64,000 nucleotides of DNA from Spirochaetota bacterium (GTDB lineage Bacteria > Spirochaetota > UBA4802 > UBA5550), in assembly GCA_963664815.2 (NCBI GenBank), contig CAXXHB010000003.1, forward strand, positions 1,792,001 through 1,856,000, written 5' to 3'. A program made the position numbers and the translations under genes. The notes beneath the pieces are model-generated. The model ran no database searches. It was not told the origin of the DNA and worked only from the letters and a program-made list of their open reading frames with translations. Positions 19,271-59,464 of the stretch are shown one piece after another (the stretch's first letter is position 1; each line of letters starts with the position of its first letter).

Positions 19271-20745
19271 ATGTCCCTAATCCAATGCCCTGAATGCAAC
19301 AGCAGAATATCCGACAAAGCCGAGGCATGTCCTCATTGCGGTTTGCCTTCTACTTATTTCAAATCTATGCAGTCAAACGCCAGTTATGTTGCAGATTCAA
19401 ATATCTTCCCTGCTGTTAACATTTCAGATATAAAAGAAATCCTTCCCGGATTTATAAAAGATTATAAAAAAGTTTTCATTAAAGATAAATATATCACATC
19501 TCAGGAACAGAAGTTTCTCCTGGCCAGGTATGGCCAATGTTCAGATATTATTCCTGAAGCTGATCTATTTAAACTTATAGAAGATTTAACCACCGATCTT
19601 AAAATTGATATTGAAGATGTTAACAAATACCTCGATTGTCTGCTTAACCTAAAAGATTCAATCAGCAACCATAATGACAGATTCCTTGATTCAAAGCTTG
19701 TGGAACACAAAGATTATTTTGATACTATCCTTGCCCCCATTGATAAAACAATAACGCTTGATGACGAGCAGAGACGGGCGATCCTTATTGATGAATCTCA
19801 TTGTCTTATCATTGCCGGTGCTGGTGCCGGTAAAACCACCACAATGGCTGCAAAGGTTAAATACCTTATTGATAAGCAGAGGATCGATCCAAAGGATATA
19901 TTTGTCATATCATATACCAATAAAGCAATAGATGAACTGAAATACAGGATCAACAGACGTCTTAATCTTCCTGTTAAAATATCTACTTTTCACGCTTTCG
20001 GTTTTGAGATAATACGGGATGTAAAGCCTGTAATCCCGCAGGTCTCTTTCCAGGCATATGATATTATATATGATTATATTTATAAAAAGGTCTTTGATAA
20101 TAAAAGACTGCTTAAAAACCTGCTGCTTTTTTTAGGCTATTATTTTGATATCCCCCATGAAATGATGCAGTTCTCATCCCTGAAAGAGTATGCTATATAC
20201 AAGGGAAACCTTGATTATGAAACAATAAAAAGCAGGCTTGGCGAATATGTCTATGAAACAGCAAGTTCAAGGTCAGGGAAGAAGCGTACTATAACTGGAG
20301 AGTTTTTGAGATCAATCCAGGAAGTTCAAATAGCGAACTTCCTATACATGCACAGCATCGATTATGAATACGAGAAACCTTATCCCCATTCAATACCTGG
20401 CGCTAAAAAGAGTTATACCCCTGACTTTTACATCTGGCAGGATGATAAACAGGTATACCTTGAGCATTACGGCATATCAGAAAACTACCAGAGCGATATT
20501 TACGATAAACATCAGATAGATAAATATACAAGGGCTATTGTTGACAAAAGGAAACTGCATAGAGAAAACAATACGGTGCTGGTTGAAACATGGAGCAGGT
20601 ACAATGACGAACGTAAGTTACTTGGTCATCTACAGGAGATACTGGAAAATCACGGTTTTATTCTCAAAGAGAGGAACCACGAAGAGGTATACCGTAAACT
20701 GACCGAAACAGCACATGATAAATATGTGTATAGACTGGTAATGTT
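19271..20745 (+). pseudogene. UvrD/HelD-like helicase-nuclease, 5' part, interrupted by prophage
   Basis: CPEC..CPHCG zinc ribbon; AGAGAGKTT; TFHAFG; embedded PD-(D/E)xK-like domain (RSIQEVQIANFL, YTPDFYI, YLEHYG). Confidence 0.88.
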
Positions 20746-20928
20746 TATTTGCGTGCAAAATTAAAAAGCTTCATGTGCAGTTAAGTATAAAATAAAACAA
20801 AAACTTTGTCAATCCTTGATTTAATTTTCTAAAAATCCAATGCAAAACTGAAAATTCATAAAAAAATATTTACTTTTCAGAATGCTCTATATACAAATAA
20901 ACCATATTAAAAAAACGAGGATAAAATA

Positions 20929-21936
20929 ATGAAGCGGTTAACGATCATTACAGGAAATAATGCGTTCGTTAAATTTCTAGTTTTTATTGGCATGTTTTTT
21001 TGTCTTTTATTGTATGGATGTGACAATAGCTCAAGTGATAATACCTTAAGTTCTGGATATTATATTCACGGAGTTGCGGCAAAAGGAGCAGTTCTTCCAA
21101 AGGGAAGTCGGGTTGAATTAAGGTCAGCAGCAGTAGATGGTATACCTTCGGAAATTAAGAAAACTACAGTCAGTGATGACAATGGTAGTTATTCTATTGA
21201 TGTCACTGGTTTAACAAAGCCTTTTCTAATAAGAGTTCTTGATGAAAGTACAGGTACATGGTATTACAGTTATACAGAGAGTAGCCAATCAATTGCTAAT
21301 GTTAATCCCTTAACAGATGCTATAATTAAAAGTTTTTACATAAATTCATCTACAATATCAAACAGCATAGAATCTACATGGAGCACTGGCTATTATAATA
21401 ATACTGTCGATATGAATGGTAACCCCGTCCCTGCTAACACTCCAATTGTGATGCCAGACGTTAATAGTATTTTAAAAATTAAGAACATTTTGATTAATTG
21501 CGTTTCATTATGGTATGGAATAACTGTTACAGATGATTTATTTACTACCAATTGGGTAGTTGGAGAAGGTTATGATGCAATTCTTGATTCAATGGGCATA
21601 AATTCTACTTATGCCACAACAATTACCAACAATGCATCAACTTATCCAAATTATGTTTCTTCTTATTATGTGTATACAACAATTGAAAATTCTAAAATTT
21701 ATCTGAATTGCAAAATTTTAACAACTGGTTCAATTGTTAGAACTATGATCGCGAACAACGAAAGTTTGACATTAATTTCTACAGATAGTAATGGTGTTCA
21801 TACATTCACTGGTAAAATTGATATAACATCTTGGTTAAATGATTCCGGGTTGGCTGTATCGGATTATAATACTACATTTTTCGAAATTGATGGGGTTGCC
21901 ACAACTCCTTACGCATTTGTATTGTTACATAAGTAA
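20929..21936 (+). CDS. Prophage moron: putative surface lipoprotein, S/T/N-rich beta-sandwich-like
   Basis: LLLYGC lipobox followed by DNSSS; opposite strand to late genes; own terminator. Confidence 0.7.
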   Translation: MKRLTIITGNNAFVKFLVFIGMFFCLLLYGCDNSSSDNTLSSGYYIHGVAAKGAVLPKGSRVELRSAAVDGIPSEIKKTTVSDDNGSYSIDVTGLTKPFLIRVLDESTGTWYYSYTESSQSIANVNPLTDAIIKSFYINSSTISNSIESTWSTGYYNNTVDMNGNPVPANTPIVMPDVNSILKIKNILINCVSLWYGITVTDDLFTTNWVVGEGYDAILDSMGINSTYATTITNNASTYPNYVSSYYVYTTIENSKIYLNCKILTTGSIVRTMIANNESLTLISTDSNGVHTFTGKIDITSWLNDSGLAVSDYNTTFFEIDGVATTPYAFVLLHK

Positions 21937-21937
21937 T

Positions 21938-21980
21938 TTAGATTTAAAAGTCCTTCATAACGAAGGACTTTTAAATCTAA
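21938..21980. terminator. Bidirectional terminator-like hairpin
   Basis: Perfect 19-bp arms TTAGATTTAAAAGTCCTTC / GAAGGACTTTTAAATCTAA between convergent genes. Confidence 0.8.
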
Positions 21981-22030
21981 TGGGTTATAACCGCATACTA
22001 TAGCAAACTATAACTAACGAAAAGTATTGT

Positions 22031-22789
22031 TCAAGAGGCTTTCCTAATAATTAATTCAGAACCAGTAGTCTTTTCTGTACCGACTGAATAATTCAGTTTA
22101 ACAGGCTTAAGCTCGAAATCCTTAAATACTTCTCTCATTTTAGGATGATCATTAAGACTTAGAATGAACGAACCTTTTATAGTTTTCAATACTTCTCCTA
22201 ATTTCACAAAATCCTCATATTCAAAATTGTGTTTATAGCATGGAGCTTCAAAATAAGGAGGATCAAGATAAAAAAACGTTTCAACACGATCATATCTTTT
22301 AATGAAATCCTCCCAAGAGAGATTTTCAATCATTACATCAATCAACCGTAAATGTACTTCTGAAAGTTCTTCTTCAAGGCGTAATAAATTTATCCTTCGT
22401 GGTCGATCAGGACTTACTCCAAAATTTCTTGATGAAACTTTTCCGCCGAAACATAGCCGTTGAAGATAATAATATCTGGCAGCTCGTTGTATATCTGTTA
22501 ATCCGGGGCCTTCCAATTGTTTTTTCCAATCGTTAAATTGTTCGCGAGATTGCAATAACCATTTGAATTGCCTTAAAAACTCTTCTAAATGATTCTGAAG
22601 TACGCGATAAAATGATATCAGGTCACTGTCTAAATCATTGATTATCTCACTTTTTGATGGATCTTTTCTAAAAAACACCCATCCGGCCCCTGCAAAAACT
22701 TCACAATAAATCTTGTGGTCAGGAATCATCCCAATAATCTGTTTTGAAAGGATACTCTTGCCACCTACATAAACAAGCGGACTTTTCAT
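22031..22789 (-). CDS. D12-class N6-adenine DNA methyltransferase (Dam-like), in the Mu mom position
   Basis: YVGGKS, EVFAGAG, INDLD, FYLDPPY. Confidence 0.92.
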   Translation of the reverse strand: MKSPLVYVGGKSILSKQIIGMIPDHKIYCEVFAGAGWVFFRKDPSKSEIINDLDSDLISFYRVLQNHLEEFLRQFKWLLQSREQFNDWKKQLEGPGLTDIQRAARYYYLQRLCFGGKVSSRNFGVSPDRPRRINLLRLEEELSEVHLRLIDVMIENLSWEDFIKRYDRVETFFYLDPPYFEAPCYKHNFEYEDFVKLGEVLKTIKGSFILSLNDHPKMREVFKDFELKPVKLNYSVGTEKTTGSELIIRKAS

Positions 22790-22918: not shown

Positions 22919-23209
22919 TTACATCACTTGCTGATGTGCTTCCTTTGACATCTGTTCTTTTATTAAATAATGTCTATCCTTGCTGAATTTAAAAATCATA
23001 TTCTCTGTCGGTATTTCAACTCTCGATTCATCAAATAGAATGAACCAACGCCCAGAGTTTTGAGTTCTTGGTGTAAACATTGGCAAATTTGAACCAGGAA
23101 CTGTGCTCATAAATCCTGATGATTCATCGATCATTCCGTCACCTTTAACTTGTTTAAGTTTTCTCCAAAAAATACCATTCGTTTTCTTGTAGTAGACTGT
23201 ATATGTCAT
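22919..23209 (-). CDS. Phage hypothetical protein
   Basis: GGAGG RBS before ATG 23209; in late operon. Confidence 0.65.
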   Translation of the reverse strand: MTYTVYYKKTNGIFWRKLKQVKGDGMIDESSGFMSTVPGSNLPMFTPRTQNSGRWFILFDESRVEIPTENMIFKFSKDRHYLIKEQMSKEAHQQVM

Positions 23210-23210
23210 T

Positions 23211-23501
23211 TTACACCTCCGATGTATTTGCAAATTCTGGACGCTGCATTATTTGCTGATAGCAGATTGCAAGTATATTAACATCTGTTTTAAGTGCAGG
23301 TTCAAATATTGTATCATAGTCACTTATTTTATTCATTGAATCATTCTTTACAGTAAATCTGATATCTCGTGCAAGTATCTCTGATTTATCTGAATCTTTA
23401 TAAACGGTTAAATAATAATCGACTGTTTTTGTATCCTTCATAACATCTACCCTCTCAATACGGGTGTAGGAATCAGCAGTAATATATCCCTTAATTGCCA
23501 T
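23211..23501 (-). CDS. Phage hypothetical protein, possible tail fibre assembly factor
   Basis: AGGAG RBS; immediately downstream of fibre gene. Confidence 0.65.
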   Translation of the reverse strand: MAIKGYITADSYTRIERVDVMKDTKTVDYYLTVYKDSDKSEILARDIRFTVKNDSMNKISDYDTIFEPALKTDVNILAICYQQIMQRPEFANTSEV

Positions 23502-23513
23502 AGATTATCTCCT

Positions 23514-24950
23514 TTATTTAATTCTCATTATATATGCAGCTGTTAGGTATTTTGGAAGAATAGAAAAAGCATTTCCAGTTCCTGATGTGATGGTAGTTCC
23601 ACTAAAACTATGTGTATGTCTGGCAGACGCACCGCCAGTAGAATACATATCTGAATATCCCTGAGTTCGGTATGGATAGCCGCTGCCCGCAGTTCCATCT
23701 GTCTCATTTGTTCCAAAACTATGTGCATGGTCTGGGCTATCTGCACCAGTAGTTCCACTAAAACTGTGTGTGTGAGCTGGTAATTCTGCAATTGTCAAAG
23801 TAACAGTATTACTTCCGCCTATAACACCGATGCCAGCGAGAGGACTTCCCATTATAAATCTTGAATCTGTTAAATTGGGAAGATATCTGCCTGAGCCATT
23901 GAAAAGTGGACTTTCAATATCATAACACAATGAGCCATTACACACTTTCCAATTATTTGGAATGGATAATGATATTGCAGTAAAACCTGCATTTGATCCA
24001 TTGGTGAAATATCCTGGTATGTAAGCAGCTATTGTGGCAATGGGAGTAATATCTGAGGAACAGTAACCATTCAGTTTTTTAGCATCATCAGATATTGTAT
24101 CCTCTACCGCATACTTCCCTCTGTTACCATAAACTTTATAAATTGAAACAACAGAAGAAGCTGATGGAATTTCAATGCTTACTGTTAGTTCTGTAGGATT
24201 ACTATTCAATAATGCAGATAATTCGATAGTTTCTACTGCACCAGTTCCAGTGAGTGTTTTTGAAGTAACATTTACTCCATCAGTCAATTTCAGAATAACT
24301 CCTGCAGGGCCTTTTACCAGAAATTTTAAAGTAAAATCAGATCCAGAAAGATATTTAGCCCAGTTAAAAAATCCGCTCAGTGTCTGTTTGAAAATACGGT
24401 TTGATGTACCATCTGAACTGCTTTGTATTTTGCAGCACAAATTGGTTGTATCATATCCGATTTTGCCGTCCGAGCCTCCATCTGTATATGCCCATTCATC
24501 AGGTATACCATAATCATACCAATTAGTAATTCCTGTTTTACTGCTGTAATATTTGAATTCACCATTTGAAACTAGATTCCTTTGTGATGCAGCATATATC
24601 CTGTTAAGTAAATTAGTTGATAGCGCAGCATCATCTCCCAAGGCGGTTGCTATTTCATTTAATGTATTTAATGCTGATGGAGCTCCTCCTATCAATGCAG
24701 ATATAACATTATCGATATATGTTTTAGCTGCTTTTTGACTGGCAATCTTCAAATCTGAATTTGATGATAAAGCTCCATCAGTATCAATAGAGGCGCCACC
24801 AAGTTTATCTATTTCAGTTTTAAGATAATTATCATTACTGTAAAGTCTGACAAACTCGCTATTAAAAGTTGATCCCCTGGCCAAGGTACCTGTTGAGGTA
24901 TCTCTGCCATCCTTATATTCTGTAATTTGATTCCCGTTAAATTCTCCCAT
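23514..24950 (-). CDS. Tail fibre protein with collar domain and HxH needle repeats
   Basis: LIGGAPSALNTLNEIATALG; IPNNWKVCNGS..YLPNLTDSRFIMG collar; HTH/HAH/HTH motifs. Confidence 0.85.
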   Translation of the reverse strand: MGEFNGNQITEYKDGRDTSTGTLARGSTFNSEFVRLYSNDNYLKTEIDKLGGASIDTDGALSSNSDLKIASQKAAKTYIDNVISALIGGAPSALNTLNEIATALGDDAALSTNLLNRIYAASQRNLVSNGEFKYYSSKTGITNWYDYGIPDEWAYTDGGSDGKIGYDTTNLCCKIQSSSDGTSNRIFKQTLSGFFNWAKYLSGSDFTLKFLVKGPAGVILKLTDGVNVTSKTLTGTGAVETIELSALLNSNPTELTVSIEIPSASSVVSIYKVYGNRGKYAVEDTISDDAKKLNGYCSSDITPIATIAAYIPGYFTNGSNAGFTAISLSIPNNWKVCNGSLCYDIESPLFNGSGRYLPNLTDSRFIMGSPLAGIGVIGGSNTVTLTIAELPAHTHSFSGTTGADSPDHAHSFGTNETDGTAGSGYPYRTQGYSDMYSTGGASARHTHSFSGTTITSGTGNAFSILPKYLTAAYIMRIK

Positions 24951-24956
24951 ATATTT

Positions 24957-25583
24957 TTATTCCTCCGTTCTGATCCTGAATTTTATTCCTCCTCCTTTGC
25001 AGGAGTTTATGATCTCTGAAATGAAAGTTAAAGTTGTGTTTGAAAGTGTATTTGAAAATACTACTTCAAAAAAACGCGGCTGGCATATATCTCCGGCAAG
25101 ATAAAAACTGCCATTCAGATATTCCTCACCGTTTAAATAAACTGAATCCGGATTGTTGATATCACCGGAAATGTATCCTGATCCATCAAGATATACACTC
25201 CCATCCAGCCAAAATGCATCTTCAAGTTCTGGCTCATTCATGTCTCGAGTATATTGGAATTCATCCTCAGCGAGTAGCCGGCATATCTCATTCAGATCAG
25301 GTATTGATCCGCTGCATTGATATTTACGTATTGCGACAAACAGATACAGTATATATTTGTCATCACCCCATCCCTGACGTTTCTGTCTGAGTATCTTGCC
25401 GATCATATCAAGAACAGCACCTGAGTTGCTTTTTATATCACTCATAAGTTTGAGCTTTGCAAAAACTTCATCAAGTTCATCCATGAAATATGAAAACAGT
25501 TTCCAGAATTTATAGTTATTTGAACTTGAACCAATTGCGAATATCGAATCTGGTAATTTTTCTATGAGGTCAATATTACTCAT
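24957..25583 (-). CDS. Baseplate wedge protein (DUF2612 / gpI-like)
   Basis: GAVLDMIGKILRQKR; LDGS repeats; follows baseplate J; ATG 25583 preferred. Confidence 0.7.
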   Translation of the reverse strand: MSNIDLIEKLPDSIFAIGSSSNNYKFWKLFSYFMDELDEVFAKLKLMSDIKSNSGAVLDMIGKILRQKRQGWGDDKYILYLFVAIRKYQCSGSIPDLNEICRLLAEDEFQYTRDMNEPELEDAFWLDGSVYLDGSGYISGDINNPDSVYLNGEEYLNGSFYLAGDICQPRFFEVVFSNTLSNTTLTFISEIINSCKGGGIKFRIRTEE

Positions 25584-26733
25584 ATACAATAACCACCTTG
25601 TCAGATGTAGTTTTAAGTATCTGCCTGACACCTGGTGCAATTTTATCTGAGGAAGCTGTTGAAGCAGAAAGCCCTAAATATGCCTTAACGTTTTCAAGTC
25701 CTTCTATATCTTGAAGTAAACTGCAGAGTTTCCATCCGTAAGCTGTACCGGCAATTATAAGATTATTGATATATTTAACCGCATCAGATTTGATATTGCT
25801 TTCATAGGTATTGTCAAATTTAGAATTTACTGAAAGCACATACTTGATATAAACCTGGGCTTCTTCCGGGCGTGAAAACTTTATAGTATGATTTTTGCCC
25901 TGGGAATCAGCTACTGTTTTTGAAACATTTCCATATGTATTAATCCCTGCAGATTTCTGTGTCATTATTGTTTCTGCAATTGTATCTTCATCTCCTCCGG
26001 ATACTATTAACTCTATAGCACCTGCAGGGAGCCCGTTTGCATCGGTATAATTTTCAACATTTTCATAACCAATGGCTTCAGAGACTTCAGATATATTAAG
26101 TATTTCAGCCCGGATAGCTTCGAGCGCAGATCCCGAAGCAAGTTGTGTGGAGTCATATCTGTCTTTAAGTTCATAGTCAGTTTCTACAACCCGGCCGCCT
26201 GTGAATGCCGATGGATTTGTTACAGAACTTATTCCTGATACTGGTGTTTTAATTTTTATAATGCTGCCGGCAGGAACATTTCCGGATGTTCCTTCTACAG
26301 TACATACTGCAGCAATAGTTACATTTCCCTCACTGTCTGTAGTCCCGATAACTGTAGTCTGAAAGATAATACCTTGTTCTGTCTCGGCCTGGGTTCCTAT
26401 GGAGACCGGTGAATATGGATCTCCTGTAAATTTTAGATATCCACCAGCTGCCTGTTCATCTTTTCTTGTGACCAAGCCAAGCTTTGTCAGTCTGTTTAAT
26501 GGAACGCCCTCTGCAACATCGATGTCAAATGAATAATAAACATCCTCAGCAAGCTGCCACTGATTACTCAATGCCCAGGCCATGAGTTTTACCTCTGCAC
26601 CTATAGGACTTTCATCTGAAAGATCAATCGACTCTCCAAAATATTCTGCAGACTGTGCCTTTGCCTGCACTTCAGACAGAAGTGTATCATATGTTTTGCG
26701 GACAAATCCCGCTGCTGTTACTCCATAGCTCAT
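25576..26733 (-). CDS. Baseplate J/gp47 family protein
   Basis: AEGVPLNRL, GNVPAGSI, VTNPSAFTGGRVVETDYELKDR. Confidence 0.9.
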   Translation of the reverse strand: MSYGVTAAGFVRKTYDTLLSEVQAKAQSAEYFGESIDLSDESPIGAEVKLMAWALSNQWQLAEDVYYSFDIDVAEGVPLNRLTKLGLVTRKDEQAAGGYLKFTGDPYSPVSIGTQAETEQGIIFQTTVIGTTDSEGNVTIAAVCTVEGTSGNVPAGSIIKIKTPVSGISSVTNPSAFTGGRVVETDYELKDRYDSTQLASGSALEAIRAEILNISEVSEAIGYENVENYTDANGLPAGAIELIVSGGDEDTIAETIMTQKSAGINTYGNVSKTVADSQGKNHTIKFSRPEEAQVYIKYVLSVNSKFDNTYESNIKSDAVKYINNLIIAGTAYGWKLCSLLQDIEGLENVKAYLGLSASTASSDKIAPGVRQILKTTSDKVVIVYE

Positions 26734-27077
26734 ACCGTTCCAGATACCTCCCCATAAATTGAATCAACCTTAAAATCAACTGTCATGGTTCTTTCCGATC
26801 GATCTGCAGTTATTTTTATACTCTCAACTGCTTTCACTTCTGAATCACTCTGAAGAATGTTCAAAATTCTGGAATATATTGCTCTTTTCGAAACTGACTT
26901 ATATTGTAATATCTCCATCCATTCTATACCTTTGTCAGTATCAAGAAACCATGAACCTTTATCCAGACGAATCGCATTCTGAAGCCTCTGTGCAAGACAA
27001 TTCCCATCAGACACCATTACAGCACTGCCCGAGGTTATTATCCTGTCACCATTTGCATCGAGTTTAAAAGTCATCAT
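26730..27077 (-). CDS. Baseplate gp25/W-like (sheath initiator) protein
   Basis: KGSWFLDTDKGIEW; position before J. Confidence 0.75.
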   Translation of the reverse strand: MMTFKLDANGDRIITSGSAVMVSDGNCLAQRLQNAIRLDKGSWFLDTDKGIEWMEILQYKSVSKRAIYSRILNILQSDSEVKAVESIKITADRSERTMTVDFKVDSIYGEVSGTV

Positions 27078-27778
27078 GATATTTTGACCTTCTCAGCTTT
27101 GATGGATGAGAGCTGTGTCTGGAGATTTGCAGCAGCAGTTTTAATTGCTGTCAGAGCTGTAGCATTTTCATCAACTGCACCAGGTATGATAGATGATAAT
27201 GCTGCGCAAAAGGTGTTTAGTATAGTCACAAGAGTATTTCCGAGCACTGCAGGCTCAGTTGCATTTAATATTTCAAACATACCATCCCAGGATATCTTTG
27301 TCCCTTTACCAATTATATCAGCTTCAGTGATCTGGAGAGTTAAACCACTATCTTTGTGACCTATAAGTAGCCCTGCATCATTGAATGAATCAGGTGCAGT
27401 CCAGTTTTCTGATGCAATACCATGTGATACACTTGCGTTTTCCCGTGAAAAAATACTGCTCGATGTATTGTCATAACCTTTACTTAATGCATTTTCTATA
27501 CTGAAAGTTGAATATGAAATCCACACCAAATCACCTTTAACATAATTTGGTCTGATGTAAAATCCTCCGGAAAAAAGAAATTGAACCGGGATATCTCCTA
27601 CAACTGCAAATTTTGTGGATGTAGATGCACCAGTAACAGTATATTCAAGTAGAGGTTGTATATCGGCTCTCATCTTTACTTTATCAAATGATTCAATCTT
27701 ACCGATGCATCCGACAATTATATCACGGCTTCTTTTATCCCAAAAACGGTTAAAGAGGTCTATTATTCTCCTGCTCAT
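27074..27778 (-). CDS. Baseplate central spike (Gp138/gpV-like)
   Basis: GKIESFD..RADIQP, DIPVQF..GGF..P..KGDLV OB-fold pattern. Confidence 0.75.
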   Translation of the reverse strand: MSRRIIDLFNRFWDKRSRDIIVGCIGKIESFDKVKMRADIQPLLEYTVTGASTSTKFAVVGDIPVQFLFSGGFYIRPNYVKGDLVWISYSTFSIENALSKGYDNTSSSIFSRENASVSHGIASENWTAPDSFNDAGLLIGHKDSGLTLQITEADIIGKGTKISWDGMFEILNATEPAVLGNTLVTILNTFCAALSSIIPGAVDENATALTAIKTAAANLQTQLSSIKAEKVKIS

Positions 27779-28569: not shown

Positions 28570-28895
28570 ATTATACAGATCCTCATTGTATCGAAGTTTT
28601 CAATACTGATCCTCTCAATTGCCGGGATCTCACGCAATGCATCGGAAAGGTTTAATGTTATTATCTTCTTCCTGAGGCTTAAACCAGGGACTACTTCCTG
28701 CAGGGAATTACCAAGATATGCGAGTTTTGAAGAATAAAGAGGAGTTTCATTTTCGTCGAGAATTACAAAGGTATAAAAATCACCAATGCTGTTATAATCG
28801 AAGTTAAATATATAGTTCTCCCCATCAATTTCAAACACCTTCTGAACCGGGAGTTCATCATGTTTTAGCTGGATATATTCAAGATCAATTTGCAT
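28566..28895 (-). CDS. Baseplate small protein
   Basis: FEIDGENYIFNFDYN; synteny. Confidence 0.6.
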   Translation of the reverse strand: MQIDLEYIQLKHDELPVQKVFEIDGENYIFNFDYNSIGDFYTFVILDENETPLYSSKLAYLGNSLQEVVPGLSLRKKIITLNLSDALREIPAIERISIENFDTMRICII

Positions 28896-28897
28896 AA

Positions 28898-48338: not shown

Positions 48339-48425
48339 CAATATTATGTCTCTAATTGTCGTTAGTGCGACAGTTACAACACTAAATTAATATATGTTAG
48401 GATAATTTGCAACATAAAAATTAAT

Positions 48426-49179: not shown

Positions 49180-49190
49180 CAGGTGCTTCA

Positions 49191-49632: not shown

Positions 49633-49673
49633 GTTGAAACAATTAAGTTAATCAATCATGAGGAGTGTATTGA

Positions 49674-50814: not shown

Positions 50815-50815
50815 A

Positions 50816-52564
50816 ATGGCAAAGGGAAAGACATTCGACGAATATCTCCTTATCGAATATTCAAACAGAATCAATGCTGCTGAAAGCCGCACTGAAAAAA
50901 GAGATGCTGTTGAATGGTTTATGGAAGTGTCCGGATGCTCAAAAGGTACTGCATACAAAGTGAAGGATAAAATCTCAAAGGGTATACCATATATAGAAAT
51001 TGCATCAGCCAATCAGAAAAGAAAACCAAGAAAAAACGATGTTGAACTTCAGATTGAAAAGCGCGATGCATTACGCGTCTCCGCAATAAAAAGAAGACCT
51101 GGTGAAGATAAAAAGTGGATACCTACCGAGCGGGCTATAGAAATCTGTGAGGATATGGGACTCATCGAGAAGGAAAAATATAACCGTTACAAGATGGATC
51201 GCATACTCGCACGGGAAGGTTTAAATTTCCGCTCAGCTCAACATAGTAAAATAGCATGGGAGATAACAGCAGATTATCCCATGCATGTACTCGTGGTTGA
51301 TGCCACACCAATAGATCACTATTACATGAGTCTCGATCGTAAAGTTGTACGTTATGATGGATTGGCGAGCGGGGACAAACATGTTGATGATTATCTTGAA
51401 AGGGATAAGCTTTCAAAGGTGTGGGTCTACTATGCTGTAGATATGAAGACTAAGGCATTTCTTGTGCTGCCATTTGCTTCAGTTCCAAAAGGAGCAGCAT
51501 CAAAAAACCCGGGTGAGAATGCTGAAGACTGGATGGCCTTTCTTAAATGGGTTATGCTCCCCAAACAAAATACTCCATCACCTCTTGAGGGTAGAAAAGC
51601 TCCGTTCTCTGATTGCCCTATTGAGGGGATACCTACCTTTCTATACAGTGACCGTGGTTCAGGAATCGGTAAATCATCTCTTGTCGGCAGGATGTGTTTA
51701 CGGCTTGGTATTCAAATTGTAACTCACTTACCCGGAAATCCATCGGCTAAGGGGTCAGTCGAAAGCCGTATTGGGGCCTTTAAACGAAGCTTTGAATGCC
51801 AGATAAACCCTGGCGTAATTAAAGACATTAACCAGCTCATTTACTTCTATATGTCCTGGGCAGAGTACTACAACAAAAAGCATGGTCTGTATGACAAATG
51901 GCTCAAAGAGTCGCTTGAACATCCAGTTACCAGGGTAACTCCGCAGAATCTTCAGGATGTAACAGTATCACATATCATCAGGGTAATTGACGGCTATGGG
52001 TGCGTTTCAATTGATGGAGAGAAATGGTTTGTAACATGTGATGGAAAGTATAAAGGAACAAAAGCAACCATATACAGGGTTCCTTCAAAAGACGGTTTTG
52101 TTTATAAAGCGGAGCTGCGTGACCGGGTAATAGTGGACTGTTATAATGGCAGAAAGCAGCACAGGTTTGAAGAGATTAAAAGCTTCCCGAAAACTGAAGG
52201 TGAAAGAAATCGGGAAGAAGCCCAGGGACTGTCAAAGGTAATCGGAGGTATGCAGGATTTTGACGATATACTTCCCAAAAACGGAGACAGCAAGATTGTT
52301 CGTATGCCTTCAATAACCAGACCATCAATAGATACTCACTCACCAGTTGTACCATCAGAATTTAAAAGCCCTGAAAAAGCCTGGAAATGGGTACTCAACC
52401 AGACCGGACTTTTTCTGGAAGAGATTCCGGAGGATAGTCGCGATTCAATCAACAACCTCTTTATCATGTTCATCCGGGAGGAGGGATTTATCTCAGGTGA
52501 ATTTGCAGTAAAGATGGCAAATCTAATAAACAGTAAAAAGAAGGAGGGAATATCTCATGGGTGA
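50816..52564 (+). CDS. Mu-like DDE transposase (MuA analogue)
   Basis: VLVVDATP (D), LYSDRGSG (D), PGNPSAKGSVES (E); C-terminal GCVSIDGEKW. Confidence 0.85.
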   Translation: MAKGKTFDEYLLIEYSNRINAAESRTEKRDAVEWFMEVSGCSKGTAYKVKDKISKGIPYIEIASANQKRKPRKNDVELQIEKRDALRVSAIKRRPGEDKKWIPTERAIEICEDMGLIEKEKYNRYKMDRILAREGLNFRSAQHSKIAWEITADYPMHVLVVDATPIDHYYMSLDRKVVRYDGLASGDKHVDDYLERDKLSKVWVYYAVDMKTKAFLVLPFASVPKGAASKNPGENAEDWMAFLKWVMLPKQNTPSPLEGRKAPFSDCPIEGIPTFLYSDRGSGIGKSSLVGRMCLRLGIQIVTHLPGNPSAKGSVESRIGAFKRSFECQINPGVIKDINQLIYFYMSWAEYYNKKHGLYDKWLKESLEHPVTRVTPQNLQDVTVSHIIRVIDGYGCVSIDGEKWFVTCDGKYKGTKATIYRVPSKDGFVYKAELRDRVIVDCYNGRKQHRFEEIKSFPKTEGERNREEAQGLSKVIGGMQDFDDILPKNGDSKIVRMPSITRPSIDTHSPVVPSEFKSPEKAWKWVLNQTGLFLEEIPEDSRDSINNLFIMFIREEGFISGEFAVKMANLINSKKKEGISHG

Positions 52565-53543
52565 AAATACAATTGTACCTGTTGAAACACAAAATGTCCG
52601 TGCTGTTAAGAATGCAGTTCGTTCAACTGTTAATAATAATGGAATGATGGCTGTAGTGGCAGATGTAGGTTCAGGTAAAACAACTATGTTTAATTATCTG
52701 GCAGACTACTGGAGCAGTAATCCTCAGAAGTTCAGGGTTATAACCGTTAAAGCCTTTGAGTCGCCACTCACAAAAATTGGGGTTATAATGCGTCTTATGA
52801 TGGAAACAATAAATTCGGATATTCATATTCCTCGCGGGATTGAGAGACAGTATAAAGGACTTACAGATGAACTTTTCAGGTTCACCAGAAACAGAAGTAA
52901 CAGGGTTATCCTTATGATAGATGAAGCACAGGATTTGAATTACCAGACATTCATGGATATAAAGAAGATCCATGAAATTGCCGGCAATGGTATGAAGAAT
53001 ATGTTTTCAGTCATCCTCTTCGGTAAACCTCACCGCAAATGGGACAAACTTTATGCCGGCCCTGAAATAGGTTACCGCATGAATATGGTACTTCTTGAAG
53101 AACTTACCCAGGATGAAATGATAAAAATCGCTGAACAAAGATTCACTCTCAACTTTGAAAACGATGCAGTACGTAAAAGATTCACTGCATCTGTTAAGTA
53201 CAAAACACCGCTCGGCATTGAGTTTTTTGCAAAAGCGTTAAAGAAAGAACTTGGACTCGATGAAAGTGAATCAGCTCATGTAAATTCTGAGTTGGTTACA
53301 AAGATACCAATGTTGTCACTAAAGATCAGAGCAAAACAGGCTGGTATAAAACAGCATGATATAGCGGAAGCTGGCCGCCAGGTGATTAAACATAAAAAAG
53401 TCAATGAACAGAGAGTCAGTGAGTTCATGAATAACAAGCTTGATGATGAACAACTGGCAACTGAGCTCACAGTAATTACAGAGCAGCTTATAAATTCAAG
53501 CCTTACTCGCAAGCGCAATATAATATCAGGTAAAGCAAATTAA
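52557..53543 (+). CDS. AAA+ transposition ATPase (MuB/ExeA-like)
   Basis: ADVGSGKTT, ILMIDEAQDL, VILFGKP; overlaps transposase end. Confidence 0.88.
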   Translation: MGENTIVPVETQNVRAVKNAVRSTVNNNGMMAVVADVGSGKTTMFNYLADYWSSNPQKFRVITVKAFESPLTKIGVIMRLMMETINSDIHIPRGIERQYKGLTDELFRFTRNRSNRVILMIDEAQDLNYQTFMDIKKIHEIAGNGMKNMFSVILFGKPHRKWDKLYAGPEIGYRMNMVLLEELTQDEMIKIAEQRFTLNFENDAVRKRFTASVKYKTPLGIEFFAKALKKELGLDESESAHVNSELVTKIPMLSLKIRAKQAGIKQHDIAEAGRQVIKHKKVNEQRVSEFMNNKLDDEQLATELTVITEQLINSSLTRKRNIISGKAN

Positions 53544-53559
53544 AAAACTGGAGGGATAA

Positions 53560-54204
53560 ATGAAACCAACAAGTAAAAAAAGCAGCAAATCAAAGCTTAA
53601 AGATGAAGGTTACATGCAGGATGCACAGGGACGCCTCATTCCGCTCTCTAAAATAAAACCAATGGATTTAGAGAGAGACAAGCTTGTGAAGCAAATTGCA
53701 GCAGATGCAAAAATTGAATCGGATATTCTGTTTAACTTTAAAAAAAAGACAATGAAGGCTATAAATTCCTTTTCTGACAAATCTGCAAAGGAATACAAAG
53801 TCGGGCTTGGAGGTGAAAAAGGAAACATCACATTGTTAAGCTATGATGGCAAACTAAAAATAGTACGCTCGGTCAGTGAATATATTGTTTTCAATGAACG
53901 ACTTCAAGTTGCTAAAGCATTAATCAATGAATGTATACAGGAATGGTCAGATGGCAGCCGGGATGAGATAAAAGTATTAATCAATGATGCTTTCTCGGTA
54001 AATAAGCAGGGTAAAATTGATAAAAACAGAATACTCGGATTAAGAAGAGTACAGATAAAACACCCAAAGTGGAAAAAGGCTATGGACGCAATAACAGAAA
54101 GTATTCAGGTAGCCAATTCTAAAGAATATATCCGCGTTTATGAACAAACGGAGGATGGACGTTATTTACCTATTAACCTCGATATCGCTGCAATCGAGAT
54201 TTAA
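53560..54204 (+). CDS. DUF3164 family Mu-like phage protein
   Basis: GYMQDAQGRLIP, GGEKGNITLLSYDG, FNERLQVAKALINEC, SKEYIRVYE. Confidence 0.88.
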   Translation: MKPTSKKSSKSKLKDEGYMQDAQGRLIPLSKIKPMDLERDKLVKQIAADAKIESDILFNFKKKTMKAINSFSDKSAKEYKVGLGGEKGNITLLSYDGKLKIVRSVSEYIVFNERLQVAKALINECIQEWSDGSRDEIKVLINDAFSVNKQGKIDKNRILGLRRVQIKHPKWKKAMDAITESIQVANSKEYIRVYEQTEDGRYLPINLDIAAIEI

Positions 54205-54205
54205 C

Positions 54206-54691
54206 ATGAATAGTTCTCAAAAAAATATACCAAAATCCGGCGGCACCGCGCGTAATAAAAAAATTTCACGCATCTGGTGCCTCGCCAGGGATCTCGGTAT
54301 GAACGGAAAAAACGAAGAGAACCTTTACCTTGTCGTTGAATCAATTACAGGAAAAGATTCAATTTCAGCTCTCAATTTAATGGAGCTTGATACTGTATGC
54401 CGTACCCTTAAATCTCTTCTGTTCAAACAAAATAGGCAGAAATACCTTGAGAACGCAAAGAACAGTAAAAATGGCACGGTTTATCTCCCCACCAAGTCAC
54501 AGAAAAGCCTTGTATCCGATTACATGATAAAGCTTACAGAGCAGTTAAAACTAAATGTACCGGAGTTTTATCTTGAATCAATTTCACGTAGAACTTTCAG
54601 AAAGGATTATAAACGGCTGAACCGGGGAGAAATGCAGAGACTCATCGAAGTGCTTAAATCAATTTATAAAAGAAACCAGGAGGAAAAATGA
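54206..54691 (+). CDS. GemA / Mu gp16-like (DUF1018) protein
   Basis: KISRIWCLARDLGM, TGKDSISAL, RLIEVLK. Confidence 0.72.
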   Translation: MNSSQKNIPKSGGTARNKKISRIWCLARDLGMNGKNEENLYLVVESITGKDSISALNLMELDTVCRTLKSLLFKQNRQKYLENAKNSKNGTVYLPTKSQKSLVSDYMIKLTEQLKLNVPEFYLESISRRTFRKDYKRLNRGEMQRLIEVLKSIYKRNQEEK

Positions 54692-55335
54692 AAATTATTG
54701 AAGGATTTATTCCATCCGGACATCCAAACCGTCCGGGTAAAAAACTCGAAGCATTAAAAGCAGTGGTTATTCATTATACACAGAATGAACACCCTGAGGC
54801 TACGGATACAATGAATGTAAGGTATATCGGGCGCAAATATATACGTAATGAAACCGGAACATTCGAATCTGATGGTAAAACACCATTCCGTTTCGGGTCG
54901 GCACATGTATTCTGCGATATGGATTCAATCACACTCGCTATTCCAGTTGACGAAGTAGCATGGGGATGTGGAGACAAAAACTTCCATGGAGGATACCAGC
55001 CAGTTGCTGAATCAACATTCAAACGCCGACAGAATTTTCAGACCGTTTCTGTCGAAATTTGCAATAATGATGCTGTCAAAAATTCAGATGAAGACTGGGA
55101 TGGTGCTGTTTCCAATGCCAGACAGTGGGTAATAGATTTCCTTAAAGATCAAAAACTGACTGTTGATGTTGATGGATCACTTAATCCCCAGAAGCTAAAG
55201 GCAACTCCGGAGGCAGGGAAAATACTCATTCTCCGTCACTATGATCTTACAGGTAAAAATTGCCCGGCCAGGTTCGTTAAAGATACAGAAGCATGGGAAT
55301 CTTTTATCAGGGATATTTCAAATTCAGTAGCATAA
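54688..55335 (+). CDS. N-acetylmuramoyl-L-alanine amidase endolysin
   Basis: VVIHYT, SAHVF, EVAWGCG, SVEIC, LRHYDLTGKNCP. Confidence 0.88.
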   Translation: MKIIEGFIPSGHPNRPGKKLEALKAVVIHYTQNEHPEATDTMNVRYIGRKYIRNETGTFESDGKTPFRFGSAHVFCDMDSITLAIPVDEVAWGCGDKNFHGGYQPVAESTFKRRQNFQTVSVEICNNDAVKNSDEDWDGAVSNARQWVIDFLKDQKLTVDVDGSLNPQKLKATPEAGKILILRHYDLTGKNCPARFVKDTEAWESFIRDISNSVA

Positions 55336-55356
55336 TATTATACCAAGGAGTGTACA

Positions 55357-55698
55357 ATGATAAAAAAAAGAAATACCGGCATGGCAAATAAATCCCGTCC
55401 TGCCGCAGAGCCGGACGGAGATCCGGCTGAAACCGTGATTAAAGCTGTTCAGCCTCTGGGAGATGACAGTATAGAAAAAATTGACAATCAGTACGAAGCA
55501 GCAGGTTTCGCCATCAAAGAAATTTTTAAAAACTGGAAAAAGTTCCTGATTCTAATCTCCGTGATACTTCTTATCATCGGGATTATATTGCTTCTGCTTC
55601 TGCCGGGGTATAAATGCCAGACAAAATCAAACTCATTTGAAAAGAGTCCAGTTAATCTGCCAGGTAAAGAACACTCCACATCTGGAGGAGTAGAATAA
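55357..55698 (+). CDS. Single-TM protein, candidate holin or spanin component
   Basis: Follows endolysin; one long hydrophobic helix. Confidence 0.55.
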   Translation: MIKKRNTGMANKSRPAAEPDGDPAETVIKAVQPLGDDSIEKIDNQYEAAGFAIKEIFKNWKKFLILISVILLIIGIILLLLLPGYKCQTKSNSFEKSPVNLPGKEHSTSGGVE

Positions 55699-55895
55699 AT
55701 CATGTTTTAAAAATAAATTGAAGGGAGACTGCCAATGAATGCCGGTTTAGTATCAGTTAATAAAGTCCCAGTAATAAAATGCCAGAAATCAATTGATAAG
55801 GAGATGCTTGAAGCCATAGAAAATATAAAGGCCACACTTCTTATAGAAAAAAAGAAAGGTAATCCAGACGCAGATTTCATTTTAAGGAGGATGAG

Positions 55896-56444
55896 ATGAG
55901 CAAGTTTAATGATATAATGATAGATATAGAAACGCTCGGAGCAGTTCCCTACAGCGTTATATTATCAATTGCAGCAGTGGAGTTTGACATGAGAACCGGA
56001 AAAACCGGACGGGAGTTTTATTGTATCGTTGACCCGGAATCATGCCAGAAACATGGTCTTAAAATTGAAGCGAATACAGTCCTCTGGTGGTTGACACAAT
56101 CGATTGAAGCGCGCGCTGAGTTTACTGGAAGTAAATCAAAACTTGATATTACAAAAGCACTCAATCAATTCAATAACTTTATTTCGAAGTGTGAAATTAA
56201 TGTAAATCTGTGGGCAAATTCTCCATCATTCGATTGTGCCAGAATCCGTGAGGCATGTGAGATAACAGGTCTTAAAGTTCCCTGGACTTATAAACAGGAA
56301 AGAGACTGTCGGACTATTATGGCAAGGTATCCACATGCAATCCCGAAAAATAAGAAATTAGTTTCACACAATGCCCTTAATGATTGTTATAACCAGATCG
56401 AGCGTCTTGTCTTTGTTGATGATTTTATCCGGAGGATGAAATGA
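55896..56444 (+). CDS. DEDD 3'-5' exonuclease (Rv2179c-like)
   Basis: IMIDIETLG, WANSPSFD, RDCRT, HNALND. Confidence 0.88.
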   Translation: MSKFNDIMIDIETLGAVPYSVILSIAAVEFDMRTGKTGREFYCIVDPESCQKHGLKIEANTVLWWLTQSIEARAEFTGSKSKLDITKALNQFNNFISKCEINVNLWANSPSFDCARIREACEITGLKVPWTYKQERDCRTIMARYPHAIPKNKKLVSHNALNDCYNQIERLVFVDDFIRRMK

Positions 56445-56647
56445 TTAAGCCAGATGATCTTTATAAACTTGATATGGGATTTACATTGGCGGTAATAGCA
56501 TTGATAACCGCGATGGGTATGCAAGCAGAGAATCAGAAAAGGCTTTCAGACGGTTTATCAATAGCATATGGAGAAGATCAGTTTAACCAAATTATTAAAA
56601 ACAATGATCTTCATTATAACGTTGTAGTTGAAAGATGGAGGTCTTAA
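56441..56647 (+). CDS. Phage hypothetical protein
   Basis: ATGA overlap; AMGMQAENQ.R..G.SIAY. Confidence 0.6.
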   Translation: MIKPDDLYKLDMGFTLAVIALITAMGMQAENQKRLSDGLSIAYGEDQFNQIIKNNDLHYNVVVERWRS

Positions 56648-56650
56648 TCA

Positions 56651-56851
56651 ATGGCACTTCGAGGAAGAGATCGTACAAAATTATTAACGGCTGGTTTTCA
56701 GATATTTCGAAGGGAGGAATCCAGGTTGTTAATCAAAATTTGCAATGAGAGAAACGAATGGTCGTTTTATAAAAAATGCAGCACAAAAAAAGAACTCAAG
56801 GAAGAAATGGACAAACTCATGGATATGCAGTTCTGCATCGAGGACATATGA
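56651..56851 (+). CDS. Phage hypothetical protein
   Basis: GGAGG RBS. Confidence 0.55.
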   Translation: MALRGRDRTKLLTAGFQIFRREESRLLIKICNERNEWSFYKKCSTKKELKEEMDKLMDMQFCIEDI

Positions 56852-56872
56852 AAACAATTAGGAGAAGTAATT

Positions 56873-57067
56873 ATGCTAATTATATTCAAAAGAATTAAAG
56901 CAGATTTAAAAGAAATATTTGAACTCGTGCAAAAACATCCAGAATTGAAACAAATGACAAAAAAAGAAATGTTGGTTGCTCAGCAACTCATAACCGATTC
57001 TTTAAAAAAACTGAAACGCAGCATCTCATATTCAGAATCTGTAAACCAAGGAGACTTATTCAAATGA
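56873..57067 (+). CDS. Phage hypothetical protein
   Basis: AGGAG RBS; ends QGDLF. Confidence 0.55.
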   Translation: MLIIFKRIKADLKEIFELVQKHPELKQMTKKEMLVAQQLITDSLKKLKRSISYSESVNQGDLFK

Positions 57068-57366
57068 ATATTATTATGAGACCTCGTAACGCCGGAAAAA
57101 CAACTGAACTTATTAAACTCAGTGCTCAGAATGGTGGATATATCGTATGTAATTCCCATAATGAGGCTTGGCAAATTCATGAGCTTTCAAGACAAATGGG
57201 ATTAGAAATTCCATTTCCTCTTACTTATTCAGAATTTCTTCATGGATATTATCATCCCCAAGGTGTTAAAAATTTATTAATTGATAATGCTGACTATCTA
57301 ATTAATAGTCTAAGTAAATCACCAATAGAAGCAATTACGCTAACAACTGATACACGGGAGGGATAA
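57064..57366 (+). CDS. Small P-loop-like phage protein
   Basis: PRNAGKTT and LLIDNA. Confidence 0.6.
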   Translation: MNIIMRPRNAGKTTELIKLSAQNGGYIVCNSHNEAWQIHELSRQMGLEIPFPLTYSEFLHGYYHPQGVKNLLIDNADYLINSLSKSPIEAITLTTDTREG

Positions 57367-57370
57367 AAGC

Positions 57371-57586
57371 ATGTATCCTGAATATAAAAAAGAAGAGGTT
57401 TTGCGTGAAAAACGATATTTGGGTGATGGTCTCCATTATTTTATTATACGCCCTGACAAATGGAGCGGAGAGCCTTTAGCAGAATTATTTGATTCACAAG
57501 GTAAATCTATGATGATGGTAACTATCGGGAATAGAAGCATCCATAATATTATTGATCTTTTCGAAATAAGGGTTATGCATCAATAA
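57371..57586 (+). CDS. Phage hypothetical protein
   Basis: GGAGG RBS. Confidence 0.5.
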   Translation: MYPEYKKEEVLREKRYLGDGLHYFIIRPDKWSGEPLAELFDSQGKSMMMVTIGNRSIHNIIDLFEIRVMHQ

Positions 57587-57684
57587 TAAGTGATGCTTTT
57601 CATGGGGAACTGACAGTTTTAGTTAGACCACGACCAGTAAGTCGAAGCTGCAGAAGCTTGTAAAAATCACACCAGAGGGTAAAG

Positions 57685-57894
57685 ATGTCAGAGTGGATAA
57701 GCGTTAAAGACGGATTGCCGGAATATAATACCAACTATGATGATAAATATTTTATTTATAGAGATATTTGTAATTGTTTTGATGCTGCATTTTTTGATGG
57801 CAAAAATTTTATCGCAGATGATGGAGAAATTTATAGAGAAGTATCGCATTGGATGAAACCGGAGGCTCCAAAACGAAAAAGTATAAAGAATTAG
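57685..57894 (+). CDS. DUF551-like phage protein
   Basis: SEWISVKDGLPE ... VSHWMKPEAP. Confidence 0.75.
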   Translation: MSEWISVKDGLPEYNTNYDDKYFIYRDICNCFDAAFFDGKNFIADDGEIYREVSHWMKPEAPKRKSIKN

Positions 57895-58086
57895 TTGTAA
57901 AAAGTCGCGGAAAATTTTTCATGGGTAGGTGTATTATCCTTTATTCCGAAATTTACCAAATTCTGGTAATCTCTCTGACAGTTTTATTTAATAATTCATT
58001 TAAAAATACTATTTTTCCTCAGTTTTCCTAACTTTTCAGTTTACATTTAATTACACATCGTTTATGGGGGGAGTATCACTTAAACA

Positions 58087-59464
58087 AATGTTCCTTATTG
58101 ATTTTATTAATAATTTTAAAACAATGGGTTATGATAAAGATTATTTTCCAGTTCTAAGAAGCAAAACAAAGAATGTCAGGACATTGCTGTTTCTCGATAT
58201 TGCTGAGGAGGTATTTTCATACTACCAGGATGCGCTTGCATCTCGAAATCAGCTTGATTTTGCTGATATGATTAATGAAGCAGATAAGATACTGACTGAA
58301 ATTGAGAAGTATAAAGATAAGCCAAAATATAAATACATTATCATAGATGAGTTCCAGGACATTGCAAAGCAGAGGTTCAACCTGACAAAGCGTCTTGCAG
58401 ATGTTACAGGTGCGCATGTTGTTGCTGTAGGTGATGACTGGCAGTCCATATTCGCCTTTGCAGGTTCAGACATAACACTCTTTCAGAAGTTCCTTGAACT
58501 GATGGGTGACGGCATACCGCTTTATATTACTCATACATACAGAAATTCGCAGGAACTTATTGACATTGCCGGTAGTTTTATTCAGAAGAACTCCTCACAA
58601 ATAAAAAAGCAATTAAAATCACCAAAGAAGATAAAGAATCCTGTTGTTATTGAATGCTATGATGATGCGAAAGATATCCGTAAAAACTGGATAAGTACAA
58701 TCGAGGAGACAATCGGTAAGATTGTTAATGAATTCGGTCCTGAGTCATCTATCCTTTTGATAGGCAGGTATAACTTTGACAGGGATTTACTTATAAAATC
58801 TGACAAGTTTGAAGAAATATCTAATGAGAAGGTAAGGTGTAAAAAATACCCGAGAGCCCTGATTATCTTTCTGACAGCGCATACTTCAAAGGGACTTGGC
58901 TTTGACAATGTCATTGTTCTGAATATGCTGGAGGGGAGGTACGGCTTCCCTTCACAGATTGAAGATGATCCAGTTATGAAGCTGGTTACCCACAGTGATG
59001 ATACAATACAATTCGCGGAAGAGAGAAGGCTGCTCTATGTTGCCATGACACGAACAAAGAACAAAGTATACTTGATTACTCCTCTGACACGCCCTTCACG
59101 TTTTGTCATTGAACTTGCGGATGATTATAAAATACCGCATCATGAAGATATGAGTAAGGATATACAACTTAAAAGATATATGCCCTGCCCGGTCTGTGGC
59201 CTGCCTCTAAAGTATGAAAACAACAAGAATTATGGACTGACTTTATATATGTGTACCAACGAACCTGAACTATGCGATTTTATGACAAACGATAAGGTTT
59301 TACCCGGGGATATATACAAGTGTCCTAAATGTACTGATGGTTACATGATTGTTAAGAAGAGAAAAAATGATGATAACAGATTTTACGGTTGTACCAACTT
59401 TAATTCGAATCCGAAATGTACAAATAGTTGTACAATAAACATTCAGCCTGTGAAAAATAAATGA
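58087..59464 (+). pseudogene. UvrD/HelD-like helicase, 3' part, with topoisomerase-type zinc fingers
   Basis: IIIDEFQD, VGDDWQSIFAFAG, TYRNS, TAHTSKGL, EERRLLYVAMTR; CPVCG / CPKC..FYGCTN. Confidence 0.9.

Follow-up and report, generated by a model that had tools for sequence, protein, structure and literature searches.

A 37,341-bp element in the genome of an uncultured Spirochaetota bacterium (positions 20746-58086 of a stretch of 64,000 nucleotides from contig CAXXHB010000003.1, assembly GCA_963664815.2, hereafter called the window) is very probably a temperate, transposable (Mu-lifestyle) myovirus prophage with a virion like that of Listeria phage B054; the replicative steps are what we infer. 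Alignment of the DNA to an empty site indicated one inserted unit, which disrupts a helicase gene of the host. The only recombinase found in the element is a DDE transposase with the MuA/TnsB fold (TnpA), which is paired with the AAA+ protein TnpB, and the arm on the opposite strand contains a full set of head and contractile-tail genes.

A Mu-type transposition arm driving a non-Mu virion is an already published idea. Olo Ndela, Enault & Toussaint (2021; PMC8705779) described 236 transposable prophages of Leptospiraceae in six groups. These prophages have a B3-like arrangement of two divergent arms around one to three regulators, with the tail genes occupying one end and gemA close to the opposite end; their size is around 37 kb. 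TnpA, TnpB, and GemA alone are common to them and the reference phages, Mor/C is missing in all prophages, and Gam is next to TnpA/TnpB in almost all. The head, portal, sheath, and baseplate families are specific to each group, a sheath is present in all, the tail is contractile, and lysis is by an M23 peptidase or a cysteine protease. A 6-bp direct repeat was reported for 97 prophages, and the ends are TG-CA or TA-TA. The authors concluded that transposition genes are all that is left of a core common to transposable phages.

The preliminary description of the window had suggested a distinct, possibly undescribed lineage. The design itself is that published for the 236 Leptospiraceae prophages, and the virion module also occurs in two Leptospira records (G041 and G042); what stands of the suggestion is that the clade is new. 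Its TnpA shares about 30% identity with the Leptospira TnpA and no more than 58% with that of any representative genome searched, and no close relative of TnpA was found in 50,697 GenBank phage records. New here are the clade from uncultured spirochaetes, the asymmetric TA...CA terminus, the RosmerTA cargo, and a different virion module in a sister TnpA clade.

Insertion site and ends of the element

The element splits a gene for a UvrD-like helicase. The N-terminal fragment (19271-20745, + strand) covers positions 1-94 of the UvrD-helicase profile and corresponds to residues 1-490 of a 951-residue open frame in the same-genus genome G003, and the C-terminal fragment (58088-59464, + strand) covers positions 166-267 of the profile and UvrD_C. 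The halves are joined on contig C31 of G003, where they are contiguous in the one intact frame of 951 residues, and on contig C152 of a second congener, G005, where the junction is uninterrupted and the halves overlap by one codon. In the window, the fragments sum to 949 of the 951 residues and have no further damage. The hexamer AATGTT is found on both sides of the element (20740-20745 and 58087-58092) and as a single copy at the uninterrupted position in G003 and G005. As the host sequence resumes after this 6-nt repeat, the element proper is 20746-58086; the coordinates given in the preliminary description, 20740-58092, are exactly the outer edges of the direct repeats. An insertion mechanism that duplicates target DNA is supported by these observations, and the element boundaries and the insertion chemistry are well supported. 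All 55 open reading frames (ORFs) of at least 60 amino acid residues are open, with no ORF-level sign of decay, and the prophage is apparently intact, as first described. These open frames and the otherwise undamaged helicase fragments suggest a recent insertion.

Both arms of the element travel together in its relatives. In common with the window are 34 of the 55 ORFs in G045, a 30-kb viral fragment, and 35 of the 55 in G046; G047, G048, and G049 are likewise collinear across both arms at 30-74% identity. We considered that two adjacent elements, a transposon-like early arm and an unrelated defective myovirus prophage or tailocin cluster, had been read as one, as the early arm is related to B3 and the late arm to B054, which belong to different groups of phages. 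However, the whole 37.3 kb lies between the two copies of a single 6-bp duplication and corresponds to a single empty site, the arms are collinear together in all five relatives with conserved termini at both outer ends, and the presence of head and packaging genes means that the late arm is not a tailocin, so that this explanation is hardly conceivable.

The termini of the element have counterparts in two of these relatives. The tail-side terminus (20746-20790, + strand) starts with 5'-TA, followed by a TGCGYGC-A-rich block and a 14-bp site, ATGYGCAGTTAAGT, at 20773-20786, in register with the ends of G048 and G046 (alignment A3). The early-side terminus (58040-58086, - strand) ends in CA-3' (5'-TGT on the other strand), contains the site ATGTGTAATTAAAT at 58045-58058, and in alignment A4 is in register with the corresponding ends of G046 and G048. 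The site is thus 27 nt in from the left end of the element and 28 nt in from its right end, in inverted orientation. The pattern common to the tail-side ends of the element, G048, and G046 is T(A/G)T-N, TGCGYGC, an A-rich block, six bases, and ATGYGCAGTTAAGT; the early-side end, read inward, has TGT first, then the related site ATGYGYAWTTAAGT, and then AAAYTGAAAA. The TGT terminus and the site at the same spacing (+27) were found on the early side of five prophages (the window, G046, G047, G048, and L008), and the site is conserved between phages whose proteins share about 40-60% identity.

In all three prophages with both ends located (the window, G048, and G046), the termini stand in register right after the prophage's own 6-bp duplication, which is AATGTT in the window and TTCATC and AATAAA in the two relatives. 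No helicase homolog was found flanking the relatives in the four regions, five viral records, and 25 loci searched, and thus the insertion sites differ among relatives. Duplications of three different sequences in three prophages, with differing flanks, characterize the insertion as non-site-specific. Judged from sequence, the conserved termini combined with these differing duplications and flanks support transposition.

The ends were traced through one candidate end pair in G048 that resembled the left end of the element; searching with that block revealed a like structure in G046. TGCAAAAYTRAAAA, an initial guess at the end motif derived from the left end alone, occurred 9 times where 8.1 occurrences were expected, was absent from the right end, and was dropped. 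A blind scan for duplications with inverted repeats gave mostly chance pairs and missed the true pair of the element, and a terminal regular expression also failed. Exact-match scans with the 20-nt right end in metagenome contigs and with the 24-nt left end in viral contigs gave no match. A 6-bp repeat accompanies putative TA...TA ends in G041 (12 of 14 matches).

Gene content of the two arms

For family assignment, 48 of the 55 ORFs were scanned with Pfam (the seven left out are 64-103 residues long), and PHROGs and PADLOC were also used. Every gene named in the preliminary description was present, with small corrections only: a DDE transposase, an AAA ATPase, DUF3164, and GemA on the + strand, and the head, tail, and repressor genes on the - strand. 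The + strand arm spans 48426-57894. TnpA (50750-52564, + strand) matched phrog_2610 (1.7e-125) and phrog_310 'transposase' (3e-22) and, weakly, the Pfam family rve_3 (E 1.2e-3). The proposed catalytic triad, D184, D301, and E338, is invariant in an alignment of 22 sequences and falls on the expected strands and helix. With an AlphaFold model of TnpA (mean predicted local distance difference test score 77, predicted template modelling score 0.48), Foldseek retrieved TnsB (2.4e-14), IstA (2.5e-9), and the Mu transpososome chain 4fcy_B (2.6e-7). By sequence, the TnpA profile matched only TnsB (E 1.9e-4) and the retroviral integrase core among solved structures, and MuA was found by fold alone; tblastn gave transposases of B3-like and D3112-like Pseudomonas phages at about 24% identity. 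TnpB (52557-53543, + strand) matched AAA_22 (E 1.2e-11) and phrog_296 'DNA transposition protein' (3.6e-13), and had no match by sequence among solved structures.

TnpB is followed on the same strand by DUF3164 (53560-54204; Pfam 5e-79) and GemA (54140-54691; PF06252, E 1.3e-10, 42.7 bits against a cut-off of 27). The DUF3164 protein, which is 47% identical to ORF6 of Pseudomonas phage B3, was not found in any searched prophage of the window's clade, which suggests a separate acquisition on the basis of sequence comparison. Upstream of TnpA, early regulators and small genes that are conserved in the relatives occupy 48426-50814 (+ strand) and include helix-turn-helix (HTH) proteins and, just upstream of TnpA, a 279-residue phrog_6963 protein. 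The remainder of the arm (54688-57894, + strand) contains, according to Pfam and PHROGs, an Amidase_2 endolysin candidate, a membrane protein (55357-55698), an Rv2179c-like 3'-5' exonuclease (55896-56444), and small ORFs.

Transcribed away from this early operon, the - strand arm begins with the repressor candidate, an HTH_3 protein (47771-48214, - strand; PF01381, E 1.4e-5) that matched PHROG repressor families and has 31-50% identity in the relatives. Two small genes upstream of TerS (44132-44819, - strand) encode a 71-residue HTH_17 protein (E 1e-12) and a 143-residue protein, both conserved in the relatives (38-74%); their position makes them candidate late-gene regulators. Counts of promoter-like and terminator-like sequences in 43500-49000 were at or below chance, and operator-like inverted repeats at 48224-48338 are unproven candidates.

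The packaging and head genes (33982-43642, - strand) are collinear with genes 2-11 of B054. Pfam and PHROGs assigned them to TerS, TerL (Terminase_6N), the portal (PF06381, 40237-41625), a Mu F-type protein (PF04233, 38579-40108), an HNH/endonuclease VII-like insert (38142-38588), DUF2213 (36784-38043), which stands in place of gpI, a cement protein, the capsid (PF09950, 35313-36263), and connectors. The insert, between the Mu F-like gene and DUF2213, was found in none of the relatives and may be a free-standing homing endonuclease. The contractile tail and baseplate genes (22919-33995, - strand), assigned by Pfam and by collinearity with B054, encode a terminator, the sheath (DUF3383, 32432-33469), the tube (PF11681, 32017-32430, below the Pfam cut-off with 23.1 against 25 bits), a chaperone pair, the tape measure, a Dit-like hub, a plug, the spike (N-domain PF18352, 27074-27778), a sheath initiator, Baseplate_J, and a fibre. 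Between the tube and the tape measure, two ORFs at 31451-31994 (- strand) overlap in different frames, in the usual place of a frameshifted tail-assembly chaperone pair.

No DUF935 portal and no Mu I or T protein was found in the 48 ORFs, and there was no tblastn match to head genes of Mu or B3. Their absence, and that of Mor/C, had been noted from the letters alone, and holds with one qualification, the Mu F-type protein in the head module. The PF04233 family is widespread outside Mu-like phages. As first described, neither a tyrosine or serine integrase nor a replisome protein was found among the 48 ORFs.

Compared with the Leptospiraceae prophages of PMC8705779, the element has the same two-arm layout with central regulators and with the tail genes and gemA toward opposite ends, the same TnpA/TnpB/GemA set without Mor/C, a contractile tail, a 6-bp repeat, and a length of about 37 kb. 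It differs from them in that its host is an uncultured Spirochaetota bacterium and not a named Leptospira, in having DUF3164 and no Gam detected among the ORFs scanned, in its lysis candidate (Amidase_2 on the early arm instead of an M23 peptidase or a cysteine protease), and in its termini (TA...CA instead of TG-CA or TA-TA). We found no literature on such prophages in non-Leptospiraceae or uncultured spirochaetes in a search covering few subscription journals.

We took G041 and G042 as Leptospira because their TnpA sequences are 94% and 99.5% identical to NCBI-named Leptospira proteins. They have 20 and 21 of the window's 55 ORFs in common, mostly from the virion module (TerS, TerL, portal, Mu F-like, DUF2213, cement, capsid, sheath, tape measure, and baseplate proteins) at 24-45% identity; 18 of the 20 ORFs matching G041 are packaging or virion genes. 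In contrast, TnpA and TnpB of these records are only 28-31% identical to those of the window, and TnpA/TnpB intervene between their head block and their tail genes, which have opposite orientations.

Pseudomonas phage B3 (Beetrevirus), one of the classical transposable phages ('Saltoviridae', with Mu, BcepMu, and relatives), resembles the element in the gene order of the early arm, the divergent layout, and the GemA family. Searching with the 55 ORFs by tblastn gave four matches in B3, none of them structural: TnpA (23%), TnpB (ORF11, 24%), DUF3164 (47%), and Dam (ORF48 region, 45%). According to its annotation, B3 has Mor, Mu-type TerL, portal, protease, and capsid proteins, and a non-contractile tail, none of which matched the window. 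Escherichia phage Mu has a DDE transposase of the same fold, an AAA+ partner, GemA, a contractile tail, and, at its tail-side end, a gene for DNA modification; however, only one of the 55 ORFs matched Mu (baseplate J, 26% over 108 residues, tblastn), and the annotated layout of Mu is unidirectional, with Mor/C, a DUF935-type portal, and the I/T head proteins. Mu makes a 5-bp duplication, in contrast to the 6 bp in the window.

Ten collinear proteins are common to the element and B054 at 25-34% identity (TerL, portal, Mu F-like, DUF2213, capsid, neck, sheath, tube, Dit-like, and baseplate J). Unlike the element, B054, which has a Firmicute host, is annotated with an integrase, attP, and replication genes (an initiator and a DnaC-like loader), and without a transposase. 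The ORF map and the family scans bear out two further points of the preliminary description, a transposable-type prophage with a B3-like divergent layout and a virion module of non-Mu families.

Transposition and alternative lifestyles

TnpA would bind the end sites and cut at the termini, TnpB would choose targets, and the ends would be joined to target cuts staggered by 6 bp. Induction would relieve the HTH_3 repressor, and the genome would then multiply by rounds of replicative transposition. TerS/TerL of the B054 type would fill heads by the headful from integrated copies, and virion DNA would therefore be expected to have variable host DNA at its ends. The virion would have a B054-like head and a short-sheath contractile tail, and not the head of Mu or B3. 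LP041, a close relative of B054, is predicted to be circularly permuted and terminally redundant (PMC8303350), which fits headful packaging by a B054-type terminase and would by extension apply to the window.

Several points weigh against an actively transposing prophage. Replicative transposition and headful packaging from the chromosome are steps that we infer. The 14-bp site is not enriched in the window: 2 sites were observed against 2.1 expected with up to two mismatches, and 17 against 23.5 with up to three; it is solely by its symmetric position and its conservation that the site appears significant. At the aligned position where G048 and G046 have TG on the tail side, the window has TA. 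The terminal dinucleotide is important in Mu, and the window copy could be impaired by its TA terminus. The element is a single copy in the 5.2-Mb genome, with no sign of activity. Among contigs on 48000-64000, those of runs X1, X3, and X5 (from two studies) span one and the same junction on the right side, and an X4 contig ends at 58079. Among those listed, there was neither a different junction nor a loose end at 58086, beyond which there are 77 further loose ends, and contigs drop rare variants; as contigs cannot show rare transposition products, these data say nothing on activity.

The TA terminus, the single copy, and the same junction in two studies would also fit a once-transposable prophage that is now fixed. 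In such a case, the change from TG to TA would have left TnpA unable to cleave and join the tail-side end, and the prophage would be a stable lysogenic island supplying RosmerTA and the lipoprotein. The 55 open ORFs and the helicase fragments, undamaged over 949 of 951 residues, suggest instead a recent insertion. In addition, PMC8705779 reports natural Leptospira prophages with TA-TA ends, one of them with a newly gained copy; TA is thus tolerated by some TnpA of the Leptospira-type assemblage. We regard a fixed prophage as rather unlikely.

The remaining points against a transposing prophage concern its genes. No Mor/C family was found in the 48 ORFs, and there was no tblastn match to mor/C of Mu or B3, with a diverged analogue possible and the two small genes at 44132-44819 as candidates. 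Similarly, there was no Gam family in the 48 ORFs and no match to gam of Mu. The HNH/endonuclease VII-like gene lies inside the head module, and HNH enzymes serve cos-type packaging in some phages. The lack of Gam and Mor, the HNH-like gene beside the head genes, and a packaging and head module of a family found in an integrase phage packaging permuted DNA would be in line with a DDE transposase and TnpB used only to integrate, by conservative cut-and-paste or in a one-off event, with replication by host enzymes and packaging from concatemers by the B054-type terminase. However, none of the 48 ORFs matched an origin-binding protein, primase, helicase, or polymerase. Moreover, the set of TnpB, GemA, and DUF3164 is typical of transposable phages, and the 37.3-kb length and the B3-like layout match such phages. 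The use of the transposase for integration only is therefore improbable to a still greater degree than fixation, and we prefer the transposable prophage.

Distribution, virion modules, and cargo

The distribution of TnpA is sporadic. With this query, none of the seven other same-genus genomes and one of 24 same-family genomes had a relative. A profile search of 1.84 billion representatives gave 78 clusters at E <=1e-30 and 895 at E <=1e-3, so that the TnpA family is modest in size, and the named homologs were all from Spirochaetota metagenome-assembled genomes or Leptospira. Relatives from Spirochaetota were likewise obtained for a membrane protein of the host. Two records, G043 and G044, have the early arm in common with the window (TnpA 42-43%) and not the virion; the virion of G043 (L050-L052) has a GpA-type TerL, Phage_capsid_4, and a DUF2586 sheath. 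No relative of the portal was found in the whole genome G050.

In G049 (C11:223930-309413, L059-L064), at least four copies of a 1.2-kb repeat surround the related prophage, and its TerL-portal region recurs as a 3.2-kb duplicate some 62 kb away; this prophage is thus ridden with insertion sequences or rearranged. The 'two portals' of G049, considered as a second prophage copy, are this 3.2-kb duplication among the 1.2-kb repeats and were not used as evidence of transposition.

A quick TnpA tree was made from 31 rows: the window, 21 hand-chosen spirochaete homologs (11 of them from P0001-P0046), four Leptospira-type sequences, three further viral loci, B3, and Mu. The window belongs, together with B054-type prophages, to a well-supported clade of 14 rows (Shimodaira-Hasegawa-like approximate likelihood ratio test, 99). 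The group with the other virion is its sister with weak support (87, open), and G049 and Leptospira, both of the B054 type, are outside the window clade and the sister group. The window clade, G049, the Leptospira rows, and B3 join in open forks, and the branches of Mu and B3 are very long. This tree suggests at least one replacement of the virion module.

The element also carries cargo. The RosmerTA-type defence pair (44908-46754, - strand) consists of RmrA (HTH and M78 peptidase, 44908-46062; PADLOC 3.8e-113) and RmrT (46059-46754; 2.3e-10). It has a low GC content (0.33-0.35), occupies a slot bounded by the repressor and the late genes, and is lacking in every relative examined; its presence suggests that transposable prophages can carry anti-phage defence as cargo. 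In G046, region 15001-21000 (L065-L066) between the repressor and the late genes also has a low GC content (0.32-0.39) in a position matching that of RosmerTA, and may be a conserved cargo slot. At the very end of the element on the tail side, a predicted lipoprotein of 335 residues (20929-21936, + strand), with a signal peptide and a Cys lipobox in its translation, had no Pfam, PHROG, or PADLOC family and no homolog in any relative; it is possibly cargo for lysogenic conversion or exclusion. The adjacent Dam-type N6-adenine DNA methyltransferase (22031-22789, - strand; PF02086, E 1.3e-31) is 64-70% identical in G048 and G046.

Two further observations concern regions outside the element. Directly upstream of the disrupted helicase gene, which itself has zinc-ribbon ends, window 12000-19300 has a very low GC content (0.27-0.34, against 0.40-0.46 elsewhere) and large ORFs (for example, 16463-18487, 674 residues) and may be a genomic island. 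At 61080-63450, around a 531-residue ORF (61847-63442), the contig depth is 2-4 times that of the flanks, and fixed differences from the window and many contig breaks occur in all four runs, which looks like repeated or mobile sequence.

We tentatively propose, as a possibility somewhat short of even, that within one spirochaete TnpA family the transposition cassette (TnpA, TnpB, and end sites with a fixed arrangement of the TGT terminus and, 27-28 nt further in, the 14-bp site) acts as a portable replicon, and that it has become linked to two or more virion chassis that are unrelated to each other. One would be the B054 type, in the window clade, G049, and Leptospira, and the other, in G043 and the sister group, the type with the GpA terminase, Phage_capsid_4, and the DUF2586 sheath. 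If this is true, 'transposable phage' would be a lifestyle that virion modules enter and leave, and not a lineage, as the B054-type chassis is also found in an integrase phage. The clade would then provide natural matched pairs for what a terminase needs to package integrated, transposing DNA, and the TA...CA ends of the element might represent an intermediate form linking the two end types reported in Leptospira, TG-CA and TA-TA.

None of these findings overturns the current understanding. They extend the Leptospira-type transposable prophages to uncultured spirochaetes and provide base-level definitions of the ends for the clade, namely the 6-bp duplication, the conserved termini, and the symmetric internal site. 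The occurrence of one family of transposition modules on different virion modules, one of which is common to an integrase phage, bears on the classification of transposable phages and on what is needed to package DNA from the chromosome.

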